From Sulfurovum sp. (GTDB lineage: Bacteria > Campylobacterota > Campylobacteria > Campylobacterales > Sulfurovaceae), in assembly GCA_002733355.1 (NCBI GenBank), contig NVVN01000006.1, positions 45,365 to 55,473 of the forward strand: a DNA stretch of 10,109 nt, in the 5' to 3' direction. Both the position numbers and the translations under genes were made by a program. Below the pieces are notes generated by a model, which had not been told where the DNA came from, made no database searches, and was given only the letters and a program-made list of their open reading frames with translations. This document shows positions 1,980 through 7,949 of this stretch, in pieces (the stretch's first letter is position 1; each line of letters begins with the position of its first letter).

Positions 1980-2034
1980 ATCATAGTTTGTTTTAGTAAC
2001 AAGAGCACTACAAACTAGGGACAAAATGGTTACA
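1980..2034 (-). promoter_or_regulatory. Pho-box-like promoter of nadN
   Basis: Minus-strand hexamers TGTAAC (2034-2029), TGTCCC (2023-2018), TGTAGT (2012-2007) and TGTTAC (2001-1996) at an 11-bp period, then 10 bp, then -10 TATGAT (1985-1980). Confidence 0.7.
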
Positions 2035-2093: not shown

Positions 2094-4076
2094 TTACTTA
2101 TTTTCAAATACCTGTGGGTATACAAAAATGGGTAAATACTCTGCATCATAATTATCTCCCTCTTCATCTATAAGAGTTTTAACAATACCTACCCCTTTAG
2201 TAATACTCTCCTCATGCTTAAACGGTCGGTCTGTAATAATCTCACCTGTTTTATAAGGTGTGACATCATCTAAATGGGTAAAGGCTTCTTCCCCTTCTCT
2301 AAAATATTTAAAGGTAAAAGGCACCTTTGGAAAATAATCTTTCCCTTTTGTATATCTCTGTGTCACAACAACTTTTCTATAGTTCTTCACTGCTCCCAAT
2401 GATTCATCAAGCGTTGGATAAAGCAGTGGTGCTTCAATATATCCAAGTGAATTTAAATACGCTTTTTTAGCAGTAAATGCCCTTATAAGCTTTAAACGCA
2501 TTGCTTGTATCTCTTTTAAGTTCGCGACGGATTCAAAAGAGAGAGAAGGAAAGTCATCAGAGTACCCTTCTTCTTTCGTGATATGATCTTGAAGATATGC
2601 CTCCATAGAATCAGGCATATCTCCATACAAAGAGGCACCCACAACATGATTTAAAAAATACCTGTACTCGCCCATGTTTGCTTCACGATTGATGGGGTCT
2701 CCTCTATGTGAAGAACCTGCTGTTTGTGTTCCTGTTACCGATACATTGTGTTCATACCCAAGGTAATCCATCTCACCCCATCCCAAATCATCTGCAAACT
2801 TTCGAGAAAAAGACCATACAGTATCTATGGTATTTCCCGTTCCTGAGGTAAAATGTGGGGGTTCAAATCCATAGGTAGAACTGTGACATCCCACACATTG
2901 AAGTAGCTCTTCAGGGGTCTGTGCACGTAATTCTCCCTCTTTATCTTCAATAAAACCAGAAAGATACCATCCTGCTCCATTGTCTATCCATGTCTCTTCT
3001 TTATTATAATAGAGTTGTGCATCTTCTTCTTTTGCTACCACTTCTCCAGGAAAATACATCTTATGTTTATACATATATCGTATCTCTTTGACACGGTTTG
3101 CCCGTAATCCAGGGAACTTATTTTCACTGCTATTCCCATCTGCCTCTACATCTACATAGTGTAAAGGATGCGCAAATTCTGTGCCAAGGGGGAAAAGACC
3201 TCTGTCTACATTTACCTTGTTCGCCGCTCCCACATAATACTTCTCATCTTCTTTTACTCTGTCCTGTATGGCATGTTCAAGTAACTCAAGATTGCGTCTG
3301 TATGTTTTTAAATCATATAAACCTTCTTCATTTTTCATAAATATTTCAGCCATGCGAATATACACCCCACTGACACTTCCTGTATGTGGGGTAAAAATAC
3401 CATAGGGCATAAAATTGATGCTTCTCCACCCTGTGTTATATCCAAGTGCATCTTCAAACAGCATCTCATCTTTGCGTTGGGTTCTTACAAAACCATCACT
3501 GTCTGCAGGCAGTGATGAAGGGTTCAATGCAGGGAAAAGTCTAAAAGCATCATCTTCAATATGACTGTTGCTTACATTTTTTTGACCCTGCTTCTTGCTG
3601 TAGGCATTTTGCCAATTATCCTCTTTGAGATACTTTTTCATATCCCAGAGACTCTCATTGATATCCAGCAAACGAAAGGCTTCATTAAGTTTTTCAGGAT
3701 GAATGGTGTTTTCCCAAGGGTTGACATTAGGTGATTTGACAAATTCATTGATAGGCACAAAAGCATACTCTAGCTGTAAATTTCCTACTATTTTACTCGC
3801 ACCTGCTTGAAACAGACTATTGCCAAGTTTCATTGTTGCTGCAGCATTGGAGTGGCAGAAAAGACAGGCATTTTGTGTGCCGTGAGAAGTTTCTATATAA
3901 CACTGTGCTGGTATATTTGCATAAGGATTCTCAAAGTGTGTACGACTTTTAAACTCTCCAATCATGGCTATAGTCTTCGATACATTCTCTTCTACTGCTG
4001 CAATATCTTCTCCTATTTTACTATCACTGCATCCTGAAAAAAGAAATATTGTTAAAATCATACATATAGATTTCAT
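2094..4076 (-). CDS. Uncharacterised lipoprotein with two CXXCH haem c-binding motifs (putative dihaem cytochrome c)
   Basis: ~660-aa ORF. The ATG at 4076, preceded by GGGG at 4086-4083, is preferred over TTG 4082. Lipobox LFSGC; CLFCH at 3866-3852 and CVGCH at 2897-2883. Confidence 0.8.
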   Translation of the reverse strand: MKSICMILTIFLFSGCSDSKIGEDIAAVEENVSKTIAMIGEFKSRTHFENPYANIPAQCYIETSHGTQNACLFCHSNAAATMKLGNSLFQAGASKIVGNLQLEYAFVPINEFVKSPNVNPWENTIHPEKLNEAFRLLDINESLWDMKKYLKEDNWQNAYSKKQGQKNVSNSHIEDDAFRLFPALNPSSLPADSDGFVRTQRKDEMLFEDALGYNTGWRSINFMPYGIFTPHTGSVSGVYIRMAEIFMKNEEGLYDLKTYRRNLELLEHAIQDRVKEDEKYYVGAANKVNVDRGLFPLGTEFAHPLHYVDVEADGNSSENKFPGLRANRVKEIRYMYKHKMYFPGEVVAKEEDAQLYYNKEETWIDNGAGWYLSGFIEDKEGELRAQTPEELLQCVGCHSSTYGFEPPHFTSGTGNTIDTVWSFSRKFADDLGWGEMDYLGYEHNVSVTGTQTAGSSHRGDPINREANMGEYRYFLNHVVGASLYGDMPDSMEAYLQDHITKEEGYSDDFPSLSFESVANLKEIQAMRLKLIRAFTAKKAYLNSLGYIEAPLLYPTLDESLGAVKNYRKVVVTQRYTKGKDYFPKVPFTFKYFREGEEAFTHLDDVTPYKTGEIITDRPFKHEESITKGVGIVKTLIDEEGDNYDAEYLPIFVYPQVFENK

Positions 4077-4134
4077 CTTCAACCCCGATAATTTTTTTAA
4101 AAAAACCTCAATTTGCTTAAAAGTACCATCTTGG

Positions 4135-4161
4135 ACAAAAGAGGCATAATGCCTCTTTTGT
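4135..4161 (-). terminator. Intrinsic terminator-like hairpin after phoX
   Basis: Perfect 12-bp inverted repeat ACAAAAGAGGCA-TAA-TGCCTCTTTTGT, 4 nt past the phoX stop, with T4 runs on both strands. Confidence 0.75.
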
Positions 4162-4165
4162 TATC

Positions 4166-6037
4166 TTATTTGATACCTGGGATACCGCTAATGTACCCTA
4201 CAGGTGCATTGAATTTATCTATTTTTGGTGTCAATGCCGTCTTAAGTGCATCAGGTGTTGTTGATGTAAAGTCACCCAAGTGCTGTGCATTACTCATAAT
4301 GTATGCATAACCATTTTCATTGTCAACGACTTGCAAGCCTGTTGACTCTGCACCTGCAGGAAGAGAGAGTAGGCGAGAAAGTTTTTTTGTATCAACATTA
4401 TATGCCCATAAGAAGTTATTTGTATGTGTACCGCTGTCCTCACCTATAAAGAGCGTTCTCATTTTTTCAGAGAAGAACACATTATCTGTATTGGCAATAC
4501 TGTCAACTGCACAGGTATTACCTTTTGCATCTTCTGCGATAGCTTTGCCAAGTAATGCCGCAGGTACACTCATATTTATAGCTACATACTCTGAATCAAT
4601 AATATTCCCATCACTGTCTTTCTGTCCAGATGCCAACTGTATCTCATATGTTGCCCCACAATTGTTTTTAGCAATTTGTATGTCATCTTTAGGTGCATCA
4701 GGATCATTTAACATTCCATCCTTGATGTAAGACATAGCCATATAAAGTTTTTTATCTTTACTGTCAAATGCCACACCTTCCATCTTGTTCCATTCAGTTG
4801 TAGCACCCTTTATTGCAGCTAAACGTCTTGGCTCCAAAAAGGCTGCCACATTCTCTTTTCCGGTTTTAAGTTTTAAATACTCTATGCCATTGTGCCCTGC
4901 TCTGATTTTTGTATATCCAGCAGGCGTTGTACCATTTGCATCTGCTTCAGGGACAAAGTCAAATACATCTGCAAAAGTATGGCTGTCTGCATAACCTTTG
5001 ACCTCAGCATCTGTAGCATGCCCCAGTTTGATCCAGGAAAGGTTTGCCGATCCGCCATCAGAACCGACTACACTTGTTTGTGTCCATTTTGCAGCATAAA
5101 GCGTACCTGCACTTAGATCATTTACATTATCGGCAATATACATGAACATACCCACATTTTTACCATCATCACCAAAGTAGGCTGTTTTACCATCGCTCAA
5201 TACTTTTGACATCTCCCAAGTACCTTTTCCCATCGAGTAGTGTTTGCTAATGTTGTATGAAGCATCTTTTTTTACTTCTACTTCAGTGATAAATCCATAG
5301 TGATAGGGATTTGCTGTTTTTGTATTGTCAAAATAAACTTCACTCAGTGCTTTAATACCAGCTTCTCTTCTAGATTCATCTACACCCGCATTGTAATAAA
5401 GGTCATAGTCTTCTTCACTACCTAGATGTGTATTCCAGGGTGTTTGAGACCCAAAACATGGAATCCAAAGACCATCAACACTAGAAAAATCAAGTGGTTT
5501 TTGCTCTACAGCCTTAAGATTTCCGTTGGCATCTTGTTCTACGGATGTCAAAAGCATTCCCATTGGCATTCTTGAGTACCAATTTTCCTCTTTATATGCA
5601 CTGTTTCCATTTGCCAAAATCCAATCATACTCCAAGTGAGAAACAAGAAAAAGCTTACCATCAACATTTAGAAGAGAGTTAGCATCCGGGGTTTCTGCTA
5701 AAACATTTTTACCTTGAGGATCTAAAATGGGTTCCATATTATGGTTATATACCTGTCCCGCCTGATAAGCATTTGTTCCTACAGTATCTTTGATATTAAA
5801 GAGTGTATTATATGAGAGCGCGTGCTCTGTAAATTCGGTATCTGAAGTATATACACGCACTTTAGCCGATGAGTATGCTTTTGCCATGTCATCGTTTGTT
5901 ACTGGGGCATCCATCCCTATAAATTCTACCTTGGTTGCACTAATACCTACATTTTCATCTGTGATATCATCACTTCCACATCCAGATAAAACTAACGCTG
6001 ATGCCGCTGCGATTGATAGTAAAAAACATTTTTTCAT
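4166..6037 (-). CDS. phoX: PhoX-family (DUF839) alkaline phosphatase, lipoprotein
   Basis: 623 aa; lipobox VLSGC; PhoX-type motifs CFGSQTPWNTHLGSEE, YHYGFITEV, GDDG, GTLYAAKW, NKMEG, TDN, GEDSG, GAESTG and NAQH; RBS AAAGGAGA at 6050-6043. Confidence 0.9.
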   Translation of the reverse strand: MKKCFLLSIAAASALVLSGCGSDDITDENVGISATKVEFIGMDAPVTNDDMAKAYSSAKVRVYTSDTEFTEHALSYNTLFNIKDTVGTNAYQAGQVYNHNMEPILDPQGKNVLAETPDANSLLNVDGKLFLVSHLEYDWILANGNSAYKEENWYSRMPMGMLLTSVEQDANGNLKAVEQKPLDFSSVDGLWIPCFGSQTPWNTHLGSEEDYDLYYNAGVDESRREAGIKALSEVYFDNTKTANPYHYGFITEVEVKKDASYNISKHYSMGKGTWEMSKVLSDGKTAYFGDDGKNVGMFMYIADNVNDLSAGTLYAAKWTQTSVVGSDGGSANLSWIKLGHATDAEVKGYADSHTFADVFDFVPEADANGTTPAGYTKIRAGHNGIEYLKLKTGKENVAAFLEPRRLAAIKGATTEWNKMEGVAFDSKDKKLYMAMSYIKDGMLNDPDAPKDDIQIAKNNCGATYEIQLASGQKDSDGNIIDSEYVAINMSVPAALLGKAIAEDAKGNTCAVDSIANTDNVFFSEKMRTLFIGEDSGTHTNNFLWAYNVDTKKLSRLLSLPAGAESTGLQVVDNENGYAYIMSNAQHLGDFTSTTPDALKTALTPKIDKFNAPVGYISGIPGIK

Positions 6038-6064
6038 TTCTTTCTCCTTTTTGTATGTTTCAGG

Positions 6065-6119
6065 AGTTTACAGAACAATAGTTACACAAAGATATCAATT
6101 TCGCAACATAATGGTTACA
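6065..6119 (-). promoter_or_regulatory. Pho-box-like promoter of phoX
   Basis: Minus-strand hexamers TGTAAC (6119-6114), TGTTGC (6108-6103), TGATAT (6097-6092) and TGTAAC (6086-6081) at an 11-bp period, then 10 bp, then -10 TAAACT (6070-6065). Confidence 0.7.
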
Positions 6120-6149
6120 GTAAAAGGTGCTGTGTAGGACTTCAAGTAG

Positions 6150-6182
6150 TGTTATCAGTCTGTTATAGTTTCACTATATGAT
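6150..6182 (+). promoter_or_regulatory. Pho-box-like promoter divergent from phoX
   Basis: TGTTAT (6150-6155)-N5-TGTTAT (6161-6166)-N10-TATGAT (6177-6182); same spacing as the other three promoters and the same -10 as the nadN and sRNA promoters. Confidence 0.5.
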
Positions 6183-6216
6183 ATCACAATAAATAGAGAA
6201 AAAAAGGAGATTTAAA

Positions 6217-6234
6217 ATGCCATTTGAACTATAA
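6217..6234 (+). other. 5-codon mini-ORF (MPFEL*) with a strong RBS; micropeptide or gene remnant
   Basis: AAGGAG at 6204-6209, a 7-nt spacer, then ATG CCA TTT GAA CTA TAA; lies downstream of the promoter at 6150-6182. Confidence 0.3.
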
Positions 6235-6245
6235 GTTATTTACAG

Positions 6246-6275
6246 AAGAGACAGAAAGAAGACCATCTCTTTTTT
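6246..6275. terminator. Probable (possibly bidirectional) terminator hairpin
   Basis: On the minus strand AAGAGAUGG/CUGUCUCUU (9 bp, 2 G-U) follows the stop of the histone-like gene. On the plus strand the AAGAGA/UCUCUU stem is followed by a U run. Confidence 0.45.
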
Positions 6276-6277
6276 AA

Positions 6278-6565
6278 TTATTTTTTTGCTTTCTTAGAGC
6301 TTGTTTTTTTCACTGTAGGTTTTTTAGCCACTTTTTTTATTACAACTTTTTTTGTCACTTTCTTCTTTATTGCTTTTGCTATCATTTTCTTCGCAACTTT
6401 TTTCACTTTTTTCTTCGCTGTAAGTTTTTTCTTTACAAGGGCTTTGGTTACTTTTTTGACTACGGCTTTAGCTTTTTTCTTCGTTACAATTTTTTTAGCT
6501 ACTGCTTTTTTAGTTACATTCTTTGCTACTCTTTTTACTGCCTTTTTCTTTAACACTTTTGCCAT
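6278..6565 (-). CDS. Lys/Ala/Val-rich histone H1-like basic protein
   Basis: 95 aa; 43 Lys and 1 Arg, with no Asp, Glu or aromatic residues; repeated (V/A)(A/T/V)KK units; RBS AAGGAG upstream of the ATG; has its own consensus promoter. Confidence 0.75.
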   Translation of the reverse strand: MAKVLKKKAVKRVAKNVTKKAVAKKIVTKKKAKAVVKKVTKALVKKKLTAKKKVKKVAKKMIAKAIKKKVTKKVVIKKVAKKPTVKKTSSKKAKK

Positions 6566-6624
6566 GGGTGGCTCCTTATATGATTTTAATCATATTACCT
6601 ACTAGATAGTAATATAATATAGTA

Positions 6625-6653
6625 ATTATATACTTTTAAAGATAGTATGTCAA
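6625..6653 (-). promoter_or_regulatory. Perfect-consensus sigma70 promoter of the histone-like gene
   Basis: TTGACA (6653-6648)-N17-TATAAT (6630-6625) on the minus strand. Confidence 0.75.
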
Positions 6654-6687
6654 TAAATACTGTTATTTCCCTATAATATATGGTATT

Positions 6688-6710
6688 ATTTTGGTTACAT
6701 TTTGGTTACA
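6688..6710. promoter_or_regulatory. Perfect 11-bp tandem repeat (ATTTTGGTTAC x2); Pho-box-like operator
   Basis: GTTACA at 6694-6699 and 6705-6710, the same hexamer and period as the phoX/nadN arrays; lies between a plus-strand TATAAT (6672-6677) and the RBS of the HTH gene. Confidence 0.6.
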
Positions 6711-6720
6711 AAGGAAAAAA

Positions 6721-6993
6721 ATGACCTTTATTGAATTTAAAAAACAACTCCTTGATGCAGAAATAAGCTTGCCTAAGTTTTCTAAACTGATTAAGGTGAG
6801 TGAAAAAAATCTACAATCTTATAAAAAAAAAGGGGTAGTGCCTAATGCCATCGCCGTCTCCGTAACGTGTTTTGTCCATATGCATCATGCTGGATTGGAT
6901 TATCGCACCATTATTGAAGAGCTTAAACTAGAGGCCAAAACAAAAAAAGGTTCTGGCTTTGCAAAAAAGAAGAATAAACACGCGACAAAGTAA
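6721..6993 (+). CDS. Small Cro/XRE-like helix-turn-helix protein
   Basis: 90 aa from ATG 6721 (RBS AAAGGA just upstream; preferred over TTG 6691). The segment MTFIEFKKQLLDAEISLPKFSKLIKVSEKNLQSYKKKGVVP fits the Cro-type HTH pattern; basic C-terminal tail. Confidence 0.7.
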   Translation: MTFIEFKKQLLDAEISLPKFSKLIKVSEKNLQSYKKKGVVPNAIAVSVTCFVHMHHAGLDYRTIIEELKLEAKTKKGSGFAKKKNKHATK

Positions 6994-7047
6994 TATATTT
7001 AGTACGCTTCTCTAGTAAATCCACCAAAGTAAACATATAATAATTAT

Positions 7048-7163
7048 AGAAAGCTAACGGAATCATCTGGACATAAAGTGCACTTTGAATTGGCAAATAT
7101 AATATCTTATGATGAGGGGAGGCGTTTGAGAAGATAGGTCCAGTATGACTCCGTTAGCCTTCT
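7048..7163 (-). ncRNA. Candidate structured small RNA (~116 nt)
   Basis: 25-bp closing stem (7163-7138 with 7072-7048) with 23 Watson-Crick pairs, 2 G-U pairs and one bulged A; the G-U pairs form only on the minus strand. Two internal hairpins and a C-rich loop. The 5' end coincides with the predicted TSS of the upstream promoter. Confidence 0.6.
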
Positions 7164-7169
7164 GATAAC

Positions 7170-7224
7170 ATCATAGTATTCTTTGGTAACATATTCACCA
7201 CATTACTATAACAGTTTGATTACT
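7170..7224 (-). promoter_or_regulatory. Pho-box-like promoter of the candidate sRNA
   Basis: Minus-strand hexamers AGTAAT (7224-7219), TGTTAT (7213-7208), TGTGGT (7202-7197) and TGTTAC (7191-7186) at an 11-bp period, then 10 bp, then TATGAT (7175-7170). Confidence 0.65.
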
Positions 7225-7913
7225 TAAGAAAATTTATACCCTATACCTCGTACAGGTACAATATAATTTTTTTCTTCTTTTGAATCTATTTTTTTTCTAA
7301 GTCGATTAATTGTAACGTTAACTGTTCGTTTTTGTGTATCAGGATGATTTTTCCAAATATTTGTGAGTAAAAATTCTCTATCTAATGCCCTATGCTTATT
7401 GTTTATAAACAAAGAGAGTAGTTCAAATTCCAACTTTGTTAAAAAAACTTCTTCATCATGAATATAGGTTTTTCTTGTATTTAGATCCATTATAATATCT
7501 CTTCCACATACCCTATCATACTGTATGTTATTTGTCCGTCTTAAGATAGCTTTTACTCTATACAAAAGTTCCTTTATATTAAAAGGTTTTTTCAAGTAAT
7601 CATCACAACCTCGGATATACCCTTCTTCAATATCTTCATCTTTATCCTTGGCTGAAACAAACATAACAGGGGTATTAATGCCTTTATCTCTTAAATAGCC
7701 TATAAACTCACTGCCTTCTACACGAGGGAGCATACGATCAACCAGCATTAAATCAATATTTTCATTTTCCAACAATGATTCTACTTCACTTGTAGAGGCG
7801 ACACCTATGACTTTGTATCCATTTTTAAGCAAATGAAATGTTTCCAGTTCTAAAATATCAACATCATCTTCTATAATTAAGACTGTTGCGACAGATTCCA
7901 TATCATGTGCCAT
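7224..7913 (-). CDS. OmpR/PhoB-family response regulator (PhoB/PhosR-like)
   Basis: Receiver motifs IIEDD, LVDRMLP (phospho-Asp), VSAK and YLKKPF; winged-helix motifs LTKLEFELL, RTVNVTINRLRKKI and VRGIGYKF. The start is probably ATG 7913 or 7916 (AAAGG upstream); the ORF track extends it to 7946. Confidence 0.9.
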   Translation of the reverse strand: MAHDMESVATVLIIEDDVDILELETFHLLKNGYKVIGVASTSEVESLLENENIDLMLVDRMLPRVEGSEFIGYLRDKGINTPVMFVSAKDKDEDIEEGYIRGCDDYLKKPFNIKELLYRVKAILRRTNNIQYDRVCGRDIIMDLNTRKTYIHDEEVFLTKLEFELLSLFINNKHRALDREFLLTNIWKNHPDTQKRTVNVTINRLRKKIDSKEEKNYIVPVRGIGYKFS

Positions 7914-7949
7914 CATAAAACCTTTTTTATTGATTTGAATACCCATGCA

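Follow-up and report, generated by a model that had tools for sequence, protein, structure and literature searches.

Two described small RNAs (sRNAs) come closest to the element analysed here, CJnc190 in architecture and PhoS in concept. In the account given in PMC8687705, CJnc190 of Campylobacter jejuni is matured by RNase III, which cleaves an intramolecular duplex, and its C/U-rich loop binds a ribosome-binding site (RBS) that is rich in G. The same source presents RepG of Helicobacter pylori as a stand-alone sRNA that uses a C/U-rich loop on a G-rich mRNA site (PMC8687705). PhoS of Bacillus velezensis and B. subtilis is described as a PhoP-stimulated sRNA located within phoR's 3' untranslated region (UTR) (PMC11522486). 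Here, we analyse 10,109 nt of DNA from Sulfurovum sp. (the window: positions 45365-55473 of contig C20, NVVN01000006.1, in the genome labelled G000) that carry on the minus strand, directly downstream of a gene encoding a PhoB-like response regulator, a hairpin RNA element of 116 nt. Species of this genus oxidise sulfur and abound at vents and in the marine subsurface. Of 21 sequencing runs found, which carry the labels marine subsurface, seawater and hydrothermal vent, none is recorded as RNA. On balance, we lean towards the view that the element is an undescribed RNA controlled by this regulator, probably a regulatory sRNA, which in many relatives would also act as a leader.

Like CJnc190 as described in PMC8687705, the Sulfurovum element comes from the Campylobacterota, which work without Hfq, its 5' and 3' parts are predicted to form a long duplex and it has a C/U-rich single-stranded region. 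An antisense sRNA partner and several promoters belong to CJnc190 in that account. By comparison, the Sulfurovum element, which has no sequence or Rfam relation to CJnc190, has a single Pho-box promoter, a duplex that begins at the predicted transcription start (+1) and a hypervariable loop, its processing and target being predicted only. Conservation falls on the loop in RepG, but on the stem in the Sulfurovum element, whose loop is variable. Both are Campylobacterota RNAs with a C/U-rich loop, RepG differing in that it is described as transcribed in its mature form (PMC8687705). As for PhoS, it too is encoded directly behind Pho two-component genes, and phosphate starvation induces it by way of the Pho regulator, as is predicted here; unlike the Sulfurovum element, it measures 66 nt, comes from a different phylum and, according to PMC11522486, stimulates the translation of phoP through release of the RBS, the likeness being one of description. 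A target of the PhoS type, i.e. the RBS of the regulator mRNA, is unlikely in Sulfurovum because the regulator genes of three relatives look leaderless. The element belongs to neither the PhoS nor the CJnc190 family, nor to any Rfam family. An sRNA or leader under a two-component system is a kind of element already known; the unusual trait is the combination of an invariant scaffold with a hypervariable interior constrained in composition. To our knowledge, few regulatory RNAs act in phosphate control. According to the authors of the PhoS study, the regulators described so far for phosphorus metabolism in bacteria are nearly all proteins (PMC11522486). Judging by titles and the openings of abstracts, no sRNA tied to phosphate was found in the literature searched for Sulfurovum or Sulfurimonas. 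The element is a candidate for the post-transcriptional arm of the Sulfurovum Pho response.

When positions 7040-7170 were folded on the minus strand, 7163-7138 paired with 7072-7048, with A7144 bulged and two G-U pairs, which is the stem proposed in an earlier note on this DNA. This fold reaches -42.8 kcal/mol (z -6.83) and none of 200 shuffled sequences was as stable. The plus strand folds more weakly (-39.0 kcal/mol, z -4.31) because the two G-U pairs are A-C mismatches on that strand. The inverted repeat was also picked up by a separate listing of inverted repeats in the window. The conserved helix consists of 24 bp with one bulged A, its apical 12 pairs spanning G7151 to A7139 (bulged A7144 included), and it closes in the window an interior of 67 nt that includes a CGCCUCCCCUCAUCAU patch. 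Two hairpins had been suggested within this interior. The UAUCUU/AAGAUA stem, which carries a 22-nt C-rich loop, is present in the minimum-energy fold; the AAAG-UGCA-CUUU mini-hairpin is absent from it and is disrupted by a substitution in the nearest relative (G008). These inner hairpins are specific to the G000 lineage.

The element is single-copy at full length in its own 1.94-Mb genome, where four other matches reached only 14-22 nt (E >= 0.22). A DNA search of 40 relatives returned one full-length match, in G008. Searching for the two arm cores separated by a variable gap identified the element in five out of 116 Sulfurovum genomes. Of these five, three differ strongly in the interior and show compensatory changes in the basal stem. 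Six further diverged copies were found adjoining homologues of a 90-aa open reading frame (ORF) that lies next to the element in the window. A covariance model, R1, was built from the RNA alone. It found one locus in each of 13 of the 116 Sulfurovum genomes, with scores of 79-113 bits, and there is no sign of dispersed copies. Among 76 metagenome stretches that fitted the arm pattern, 12 were confirmed by R1 and the other 64 were dropped; this pattern took interiors of 58-88 nt, and members with short interiors such as that of G003 lay outside the scan. Altogether, the 13 genomes and 12 metagenome contigs provide 22 distinct sequences. Beyond the genus, R1 found nothing credible in 150 other genomes sampled from the order. 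Weak R1 matches in G001 (25.2 bits) and G139 (28.7 bits) were rejected, being devoid of the arms and of the promoter. No described RNA family of Rfam 15 overlaps the element, whether in the window or at 15 loci of the family, at E <= 1 in both cases. One weak match elsewhere in the window, to Hrs12 at 4088-4166 on the plus strand, between the gene of a 662-aa protein and phoX, is most likely due to chance (29.5 bits for a gathering score of 70, E 0.17).

The 22 sequences were aligned (alignment A3). In this alignment, 97.0% of the 528 cells of the 24-bp helix are paired and half of the pairs (12/24) have changed on both sides (60 cells), a level that none of 500 column shuffles matched. Sliding the helix partner by one to three columns lowers pairing to 37-46%, and RNAalifold, run without a supplied structure, recovered these 24 pairs exactly, without any conserved helix in the interior. 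Double changes affect nine of the 12 basal pairs (pairs 3-8 and 10-12), whereas the sequence of the 12 apical pairs and of the bulged A hardly varies, pairs 13, 17, 19, 22 and 25 being identical in all 22 sequences. Closer to the window, the substitutions that distinguish G000, G072 and G008 keep the pairing, for instance a C-to-U change that gives a G-U pair. These data confirm that the structured minus-strand RNA element is real, conserved and more than a product of chance. Furthermore, the family has enough covariation for an Rfam entry.

Selection at the RNA level on the minus strand, which had been suggested from two substitutions, is supported across the family: cells of the G-U/U-G type outnumber those of the A-C/C-A type by 40 to 4 in the 22 sequences (21 to 3 in the first 11). 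R1 gives the window element 113 bits on the minus strand and 43 bits on the opposite one, and the opposite strand scores 30-70 bits lower across the loci of the genus. The interiors are also skewed in composition. Their C-over-G skew is at least 0.36 in all 22 distinct interiors (mean 0.52), a value that about 9% of random 70-nt windows of the genome reach in a given direction; 17 of the 22 contain a run of CCC. Hence, four independent features, namely wobble cells, model score, interior skew and promoter direction, agree and point to an element read from the minus strand of the window.

The interior itself is unpaired in the consensus fold and ranges from 47 to 87 nt across the family, with length differences that are not multiples of three. 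The expectation that the loop would be conserved failed, since the interiors cannot be aligned and share only a C-rich, G-poor make-up. An invariant stem with a hypervariable loop is an odd conservation pattern that merits the attention of specialists.

The sequence immediately upstream of the hairpin was read in the earlier note as four hexamers followed by 10 nt and TATGAT. The four phased repeats and TATGAT stand; the repeats are now read as 7-mers and the spacer as 9 nt. The 7-mers start at 7224, 7213, 7202 and 7191, the first one overlapping the stop codon of the regulator gene, and they are followed by the 9 nt, TATGAT (7175-7170), 6 nt and A7163 (Table 1). The pattern TGTNNNN-N4-YGTWAYY-N7-11-TANNNT-N5-8-+1 fits 20 of the 21 members with upstream sequence, typically with about 9 nt between repeat and -10 box and about 6 nt from there to the A with which the stem begins; the 21st (G127) has the same promoter pattern with the start shifted by a few bases. 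This conserved layout supports in silico a predicted +1 at the first stem base, A7163, as had been proposed. Furthermore, the promoter is present in all 11 distinct members found by arm-only or RNA-only queries, neither of which contained it.

The likeness noticed earlier between this promoter and that of nadN also holds, with the same succession of repeat, 9 nt, TATGAT and 6 nt. In addition to the sites of Table 1, the box matrix matches upstream of a Porin_O_P gene (16.0 bits) and a DUF3450 gene (15.0 bits), and a looser box pattern matches at an ABC permease gene on contig C20. Leaving aside the RNA's own promoter, five of the 13 matches of at least 15 bits lie on this contig, which makes up 5.3% of the genome. 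The regulator genes of G018, G071 and G061 carry the box together with a -10 box whose end lies 5-6 nt ahead of the ATG, which suggests that their mRNAs are leaderless and autoregulated. PHO boxes are described in PMC4415409 as tandem direct repeats to which the regulator binds head to tail and which replace the -35 box, CTGTCAT being the core in Escherichia coli. Such repeats, phased at 11 bp in place of a -35 box, typify PHO boxes of the PhoB type. The TGT of this core is shared with the TGTTAYC and TGTAGYN repeats found here (PMC4415409 for the former). Unlike the E. coli site, the consensus found here is specific to the genus, and the regulator is predicted to bind it. Taken together, the element appears to carry a promoter of the Pho-regulon type, its layout being shared with genes of phosphate acquisition (nadN, phoX and Porin_O_P) and, in three relatives, with the regulator genes. 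The genus would thereby have a well-defined Pho box, TGTNNNN-N4-TGTTAYC, placed 9 nt before the -10 box.

Table 1. Features of the hairpin locus, related promoter boxes and neighbouring genes. Positions refer to the window, except where a locus label (L) is given
Feature	Position	Strand	Evidence or remark
Hairpin RNA, 116 nt	7048..7163	minus	fold, covariance model R1 and covariation
5' arm	7139..7163	minus	basal 12 pairs covary freely; apical 12 near-invariant
Interior of 67 nt, rich in C and poor in G (19 C, 6 G)	7072..7138	minus	composition count
3' arm, ending in UUUCU, then AU-rich sequence	7048..7071	minus	sequence, fold and per-pair table
-10 box TATGAT, 6 nt before A7163	7170..7175	minus	sequence; spacing common to 20/21 members
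Pho-box-like array: AGTAATC, TGTTATA, TGTGGTG, TGTTACC	7185..7224	minus	four 7-mers, 11-bp phasing
nadN promoter, same layout	1980..2012	minus	22.1 bits
Weaker box, 60 nt before phoX start	6097..6121	minus	12.5 bits
TGTAACC-N4-TGTAACC tandem box, upstream of the Lys-rich gene (95 aa)	6688..6712	minus	16.1 bits
OmpR/PhoB-type response regulator gene, directly upstream of the RNA	7224..7946	minus	Pfam Response_reg and Trans_reg_C
Regulator gene starts with box	L069 700-760 (G018), L071 715-770 (G071), L072 590-640 (G061)		
Convergent 90-aa ORF (ORF90)	6721..6993	plus	stop 54 nt from the 3' arm of the RNA
76-81-aa ORF, MEDHIIVPIMEID.. or MEEF..VPIVEID..	L070 224-454 (-), L071 1639-1854, L061 1204-1446 (-), L067 1667-1906		
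Lys-rich 95-aa protein gene	6278-6565	minus	histone H1-like, KKAVAKK-type repeats; no Pfam/NCBIfam family
Promoter of the Lys-rich gene	6653-6625		12/12 sigma-70 consensus
662-aa protein gene in the Pho island	2094-4082	minus	no Pfam family
CxxCH-motif fragments, 476-480 aa	L061 1672-3114 (-) (G100), L065 1695-3125 (-) (G116)		no Pfam family
Acyltransferase-GNAT fusion downstream of the RNA	L068 1-1197 (-) (G099), L069 2634-3122 (G018)		

Concerning its possible mode of action, the element would be transcribed from A7163 as an RNA of about 116 nt, with the 11-bp-phased TGT repeats, as a Pho-box-type site, standing in for a -35 box. The adjoining PhoB-like regulator would most likely activate this RNA under phosphate scarcity. 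Its 5' and 3' ends would form the 24-bp helix and hold open the G-poor, C-rich and unstructured interior, whose pyrimidine-rich sequence might pair with purine-rich sites of mRNAs such as RBSs. As in RepG and CJnc190, a pyrimidine-rich single-stranded region is presented by a stem, and the lack of Hfq stated in the earlier note agrees with our failure to find Hfq in the genome of the window, which is 94% complete. RNase III, for which the long helix is a likely substrate, may then cut it, trimming the covarying basal half and leaving the sequence-conserved apical half as the mature stem. The boundary between the basal and apical halves falls about where a cut of this kind would lie. A 24-bp duplex, of about two helical turns, and an RNase III gene (rnc, 242 bits, above the cut-off) are present; the cleavage itself is only predicted. 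In relatives with a Pho gene immediately downstream, the transcript would in addition constitute the 5' leader of that gene.

A bolder version of this mechanism, which we consider rather unlikely, would make the element a fixed scaffold that presents a fast-evolving C-rich guide. The scaffold would consist of the Pho-box promoter, a basal helix removable by RNase III and an invariant apical helix whose bulged A is recognised by a protein or nuclease. In this version the interior would be replaced wholesale between species, and the transcript would double as leader of the downstream Pho gene. If it were true, the phosphate-starvation response could be re-aimed at new mRNAs lineage by lineage, and the usual arrangement of a conserved seed on a variable scaffold would be inverted.

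Several results weigh against an sRNA controlled by the regulator. The interior, i.e. the supposed seed, is the least conserved part of the element, which is the reverse of most base-pairing sRNAs. A scan of 5900-7400 with a terminator consensus found no canonical terminator at or after the element. Target searches in the genome were not more favourable: a seeded duplex scan gave long gapped duplexes without a clear winner, and the 493 matches of a 9-mer seed scan were mostly of the AU-rich UUAUGAUGA type and uninformative. The start region of acpS (G000:C8:37475-37490) shows perfect complementarity to 16 nt within the G000 interior, and 17-18 contiguous pairs, wobble included, are formed in G000, G072 and G008 only; the other nine genomes give 4-10 pairs, as do mismatched controls (7.8 +/- 1.3). 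The weight matrix scanned over the window's genome was built from the family's own promoters, which makes the 24.9 bits of the window array circular, and the top match in the genome (C13, 25.5 bits) precedes an ABC ATPase gene without evident tie to phosphate. As for the regulator, its best NCBIfam match is PhoB with 167.9 bits, under the cut-off of 296.2, and no sensor kinase gene was found in the window. Lastly, a co-oriented ORF starts at most 100 nt downstream in 15 of the 22 members, loci that a purely cis role would explain.

The pairing with acpS being confined to three genomes, this gene was rejected as a conserved target. We also observed that acpS looks leaderless in most of 12 genomes (L171-L182), where six nt separate a -10 box from the ATG.

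A role in cis only is the main rival explanation, and antisense action in cis, a terminator and a DNA-level site are less likely. The element would then be a 5' leader and not a trans-acting sRNA: the Pho-box promoter would drive a downstream Pho gene and the hairpin would act on that mRNA only, by protecting its 5' end from exonuclease, by offering an RNase III site or by masking the RBS with an anti-Shine-Dalgarno-like stretch, the copy of G000 being left over after loss of the downstream ORF. We regard this as a possibility to be held tentatively. The close co-oriented ORFs of the 15 loci argue for it, as do the negative terminator scan and a 5' end that is fully paired from +1; by eye, the G071 interior contains ACUCCCUUUU and the downstream RBS AAAAAGGAGU. 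However, in five of the 22 members (G000, G072, G008, G116 and G018) a convergent gene comes next, which leaves no downstream cistron to act on, and the element is kept there with changes that preserve pairing through G-U. The small downstream ORF found in G100 and G129 is missing from the G000/G072/G008 lineage, and because this lineage keeps the RNA without that ORF, the function of the RNA appears to be independent of it. Moreover, the downstream gene varies from locus to locus whereas the linkage of regulator and RNA is constant, and a mere stabiliser would not need an apical stem of invariant sequence. Three loci (L098, L080 and L128) show by eye, under the 11-bit threshold, a second TGTAACC-type repeat after the stem, which suggests a separate promoter for the next gene. 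Both roles may coexist, the hairpin in the 15 loci being also, or instead, the 5' leader of the next gene to judge from the gene order.

These downstream genes are diverse. Seven of the 22 members are followed by an ORF of 76-81 aa without known family, three by an HD-domain protein gene, three by a PhoX-like lipoprotein gene, one by nadN and one by another co-oriented ORF; the convergent ORF90 directly follows the RNA in five (G000, G072, G008, G116 and G018), and the remaining two have another gene or none. A same-strand response regulator gene lies at most 1.5 kb upstream in 10 of the 12 genome loci with upstream sequence, directly in seven of them and with a small ORF between in three; the Pfam check of the regulator covers G000 and G129. 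In G100, G116 and L079, a gene other than a regulator lies upstream. In the last of these, a metagenome contig, the element and its promoter (1295-1382) stand behind a tRNA gene.

The position of ORF90 raises the improbable alternative that the RNA is its cis-antisense partner. Pho-induced readthrough into ORF90, or a 3' UTR of ORF90 running through the hairpin, would create a duplex cut by RNase III, which would lower ORF90 expression, or the ORF90 mRNA would antagonise the RNA. There is a precedent in CJnc180, which is described as antagonising CJnc190 and as being encoded in cis to it (PMC8687705). In eight loci, ORF90 and the RNA unit converge, the stop of ORF90 lying 15-55 nt from the RNA in G000, G072, G008, G116 and G018 and about 270-305 nt away, past a small ORF, in G100, G129 and L091, and no terminator was found between the two. 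Against this, no ORF90 homologue was found with the window query in G071 and G061, which have the RNA, ORF90 occurs in at least 15 genomes that lack the RNA, and ORF90 is upstream and divergent in G112 and G099.

It is even less probable that the hairpin is a terminator or 3'-UTR structure of the regulator gene, or a bidirectional terminator between convergent genes. It does lie between convergent genes, 60 nt past the regulator stop, both strands fold and the 3' arm ends U-rich; however, a conserved promoter separates the stop codon from the stem, the gene upstream is not a regulator in three loci (G100, G116 and L079), and a loop of 47-87 nt with an invariant apical stem is unlike intrinsic terminators, in line with the negative scan. 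That the element acts at the DNA level (as a folded single-strand recombination site like integron attC, as a miniature inverted-repeat transposable element or as a transposon end) is hardly credible: the imperfect inverted repeat with conserved arms, conserved extrahelical base and variable 47-87-nt centre, its location after a small ORF and the G-T mismatches that folded single-stranded DNA tolerates too would fit, but there is one copy per genome in 13 of 13 genomes, no array, integrase or transposase was seen among the flank proteins, the element sits in a Pho island with a phased promoter in 21 of 21 members (one shifted), and the 7-nt core consensus of attC is matched only imperfectly, at positions that covary freely.

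Several other genes of these loci deserve mention. PstS, PHO4, a TonB-dependent receptor and an acyltransferase-GNAT fusion are encoded near loci of the family. In the window, nadN passes its NCBIfam cut-off. ORF90 has no Pfam or NCBIfam family and resembles XRE-type helix-turn-helix proteins by language-model features only (0.94-0.96). Its homologues occur in 28 of the 116 genomes of the genus and are often convergent with the RNA unit; as co-occurrence is incomplete, ORF90 was rejected as an obligate partner of the RNA. For the 76-aa ORF, which is missing at the locus of the window, a look-up with a protein language model gave no lead.

In at least seven genomes, the Lys-rich gene listed in Table 1 recurs next to the RNA as a conserved neighbour, and its product may be a Pho-regulated basic protein. 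A link of this protein to polyphosphate may be surmised by analogy with AlgP-type proteins. The Pho island of the window also encodes the 662-aa protein, and fragments with CxxCH motifs are encoded at the loci of G100 and G116. Finally, the acyltransferase-GNAT fusion found downstream of the RNA in G099 and G018 presumably resembles synthases of the OlsF type, whose ornithine lipids are free of phosphorus; such an enzyme would suit a Pho island.

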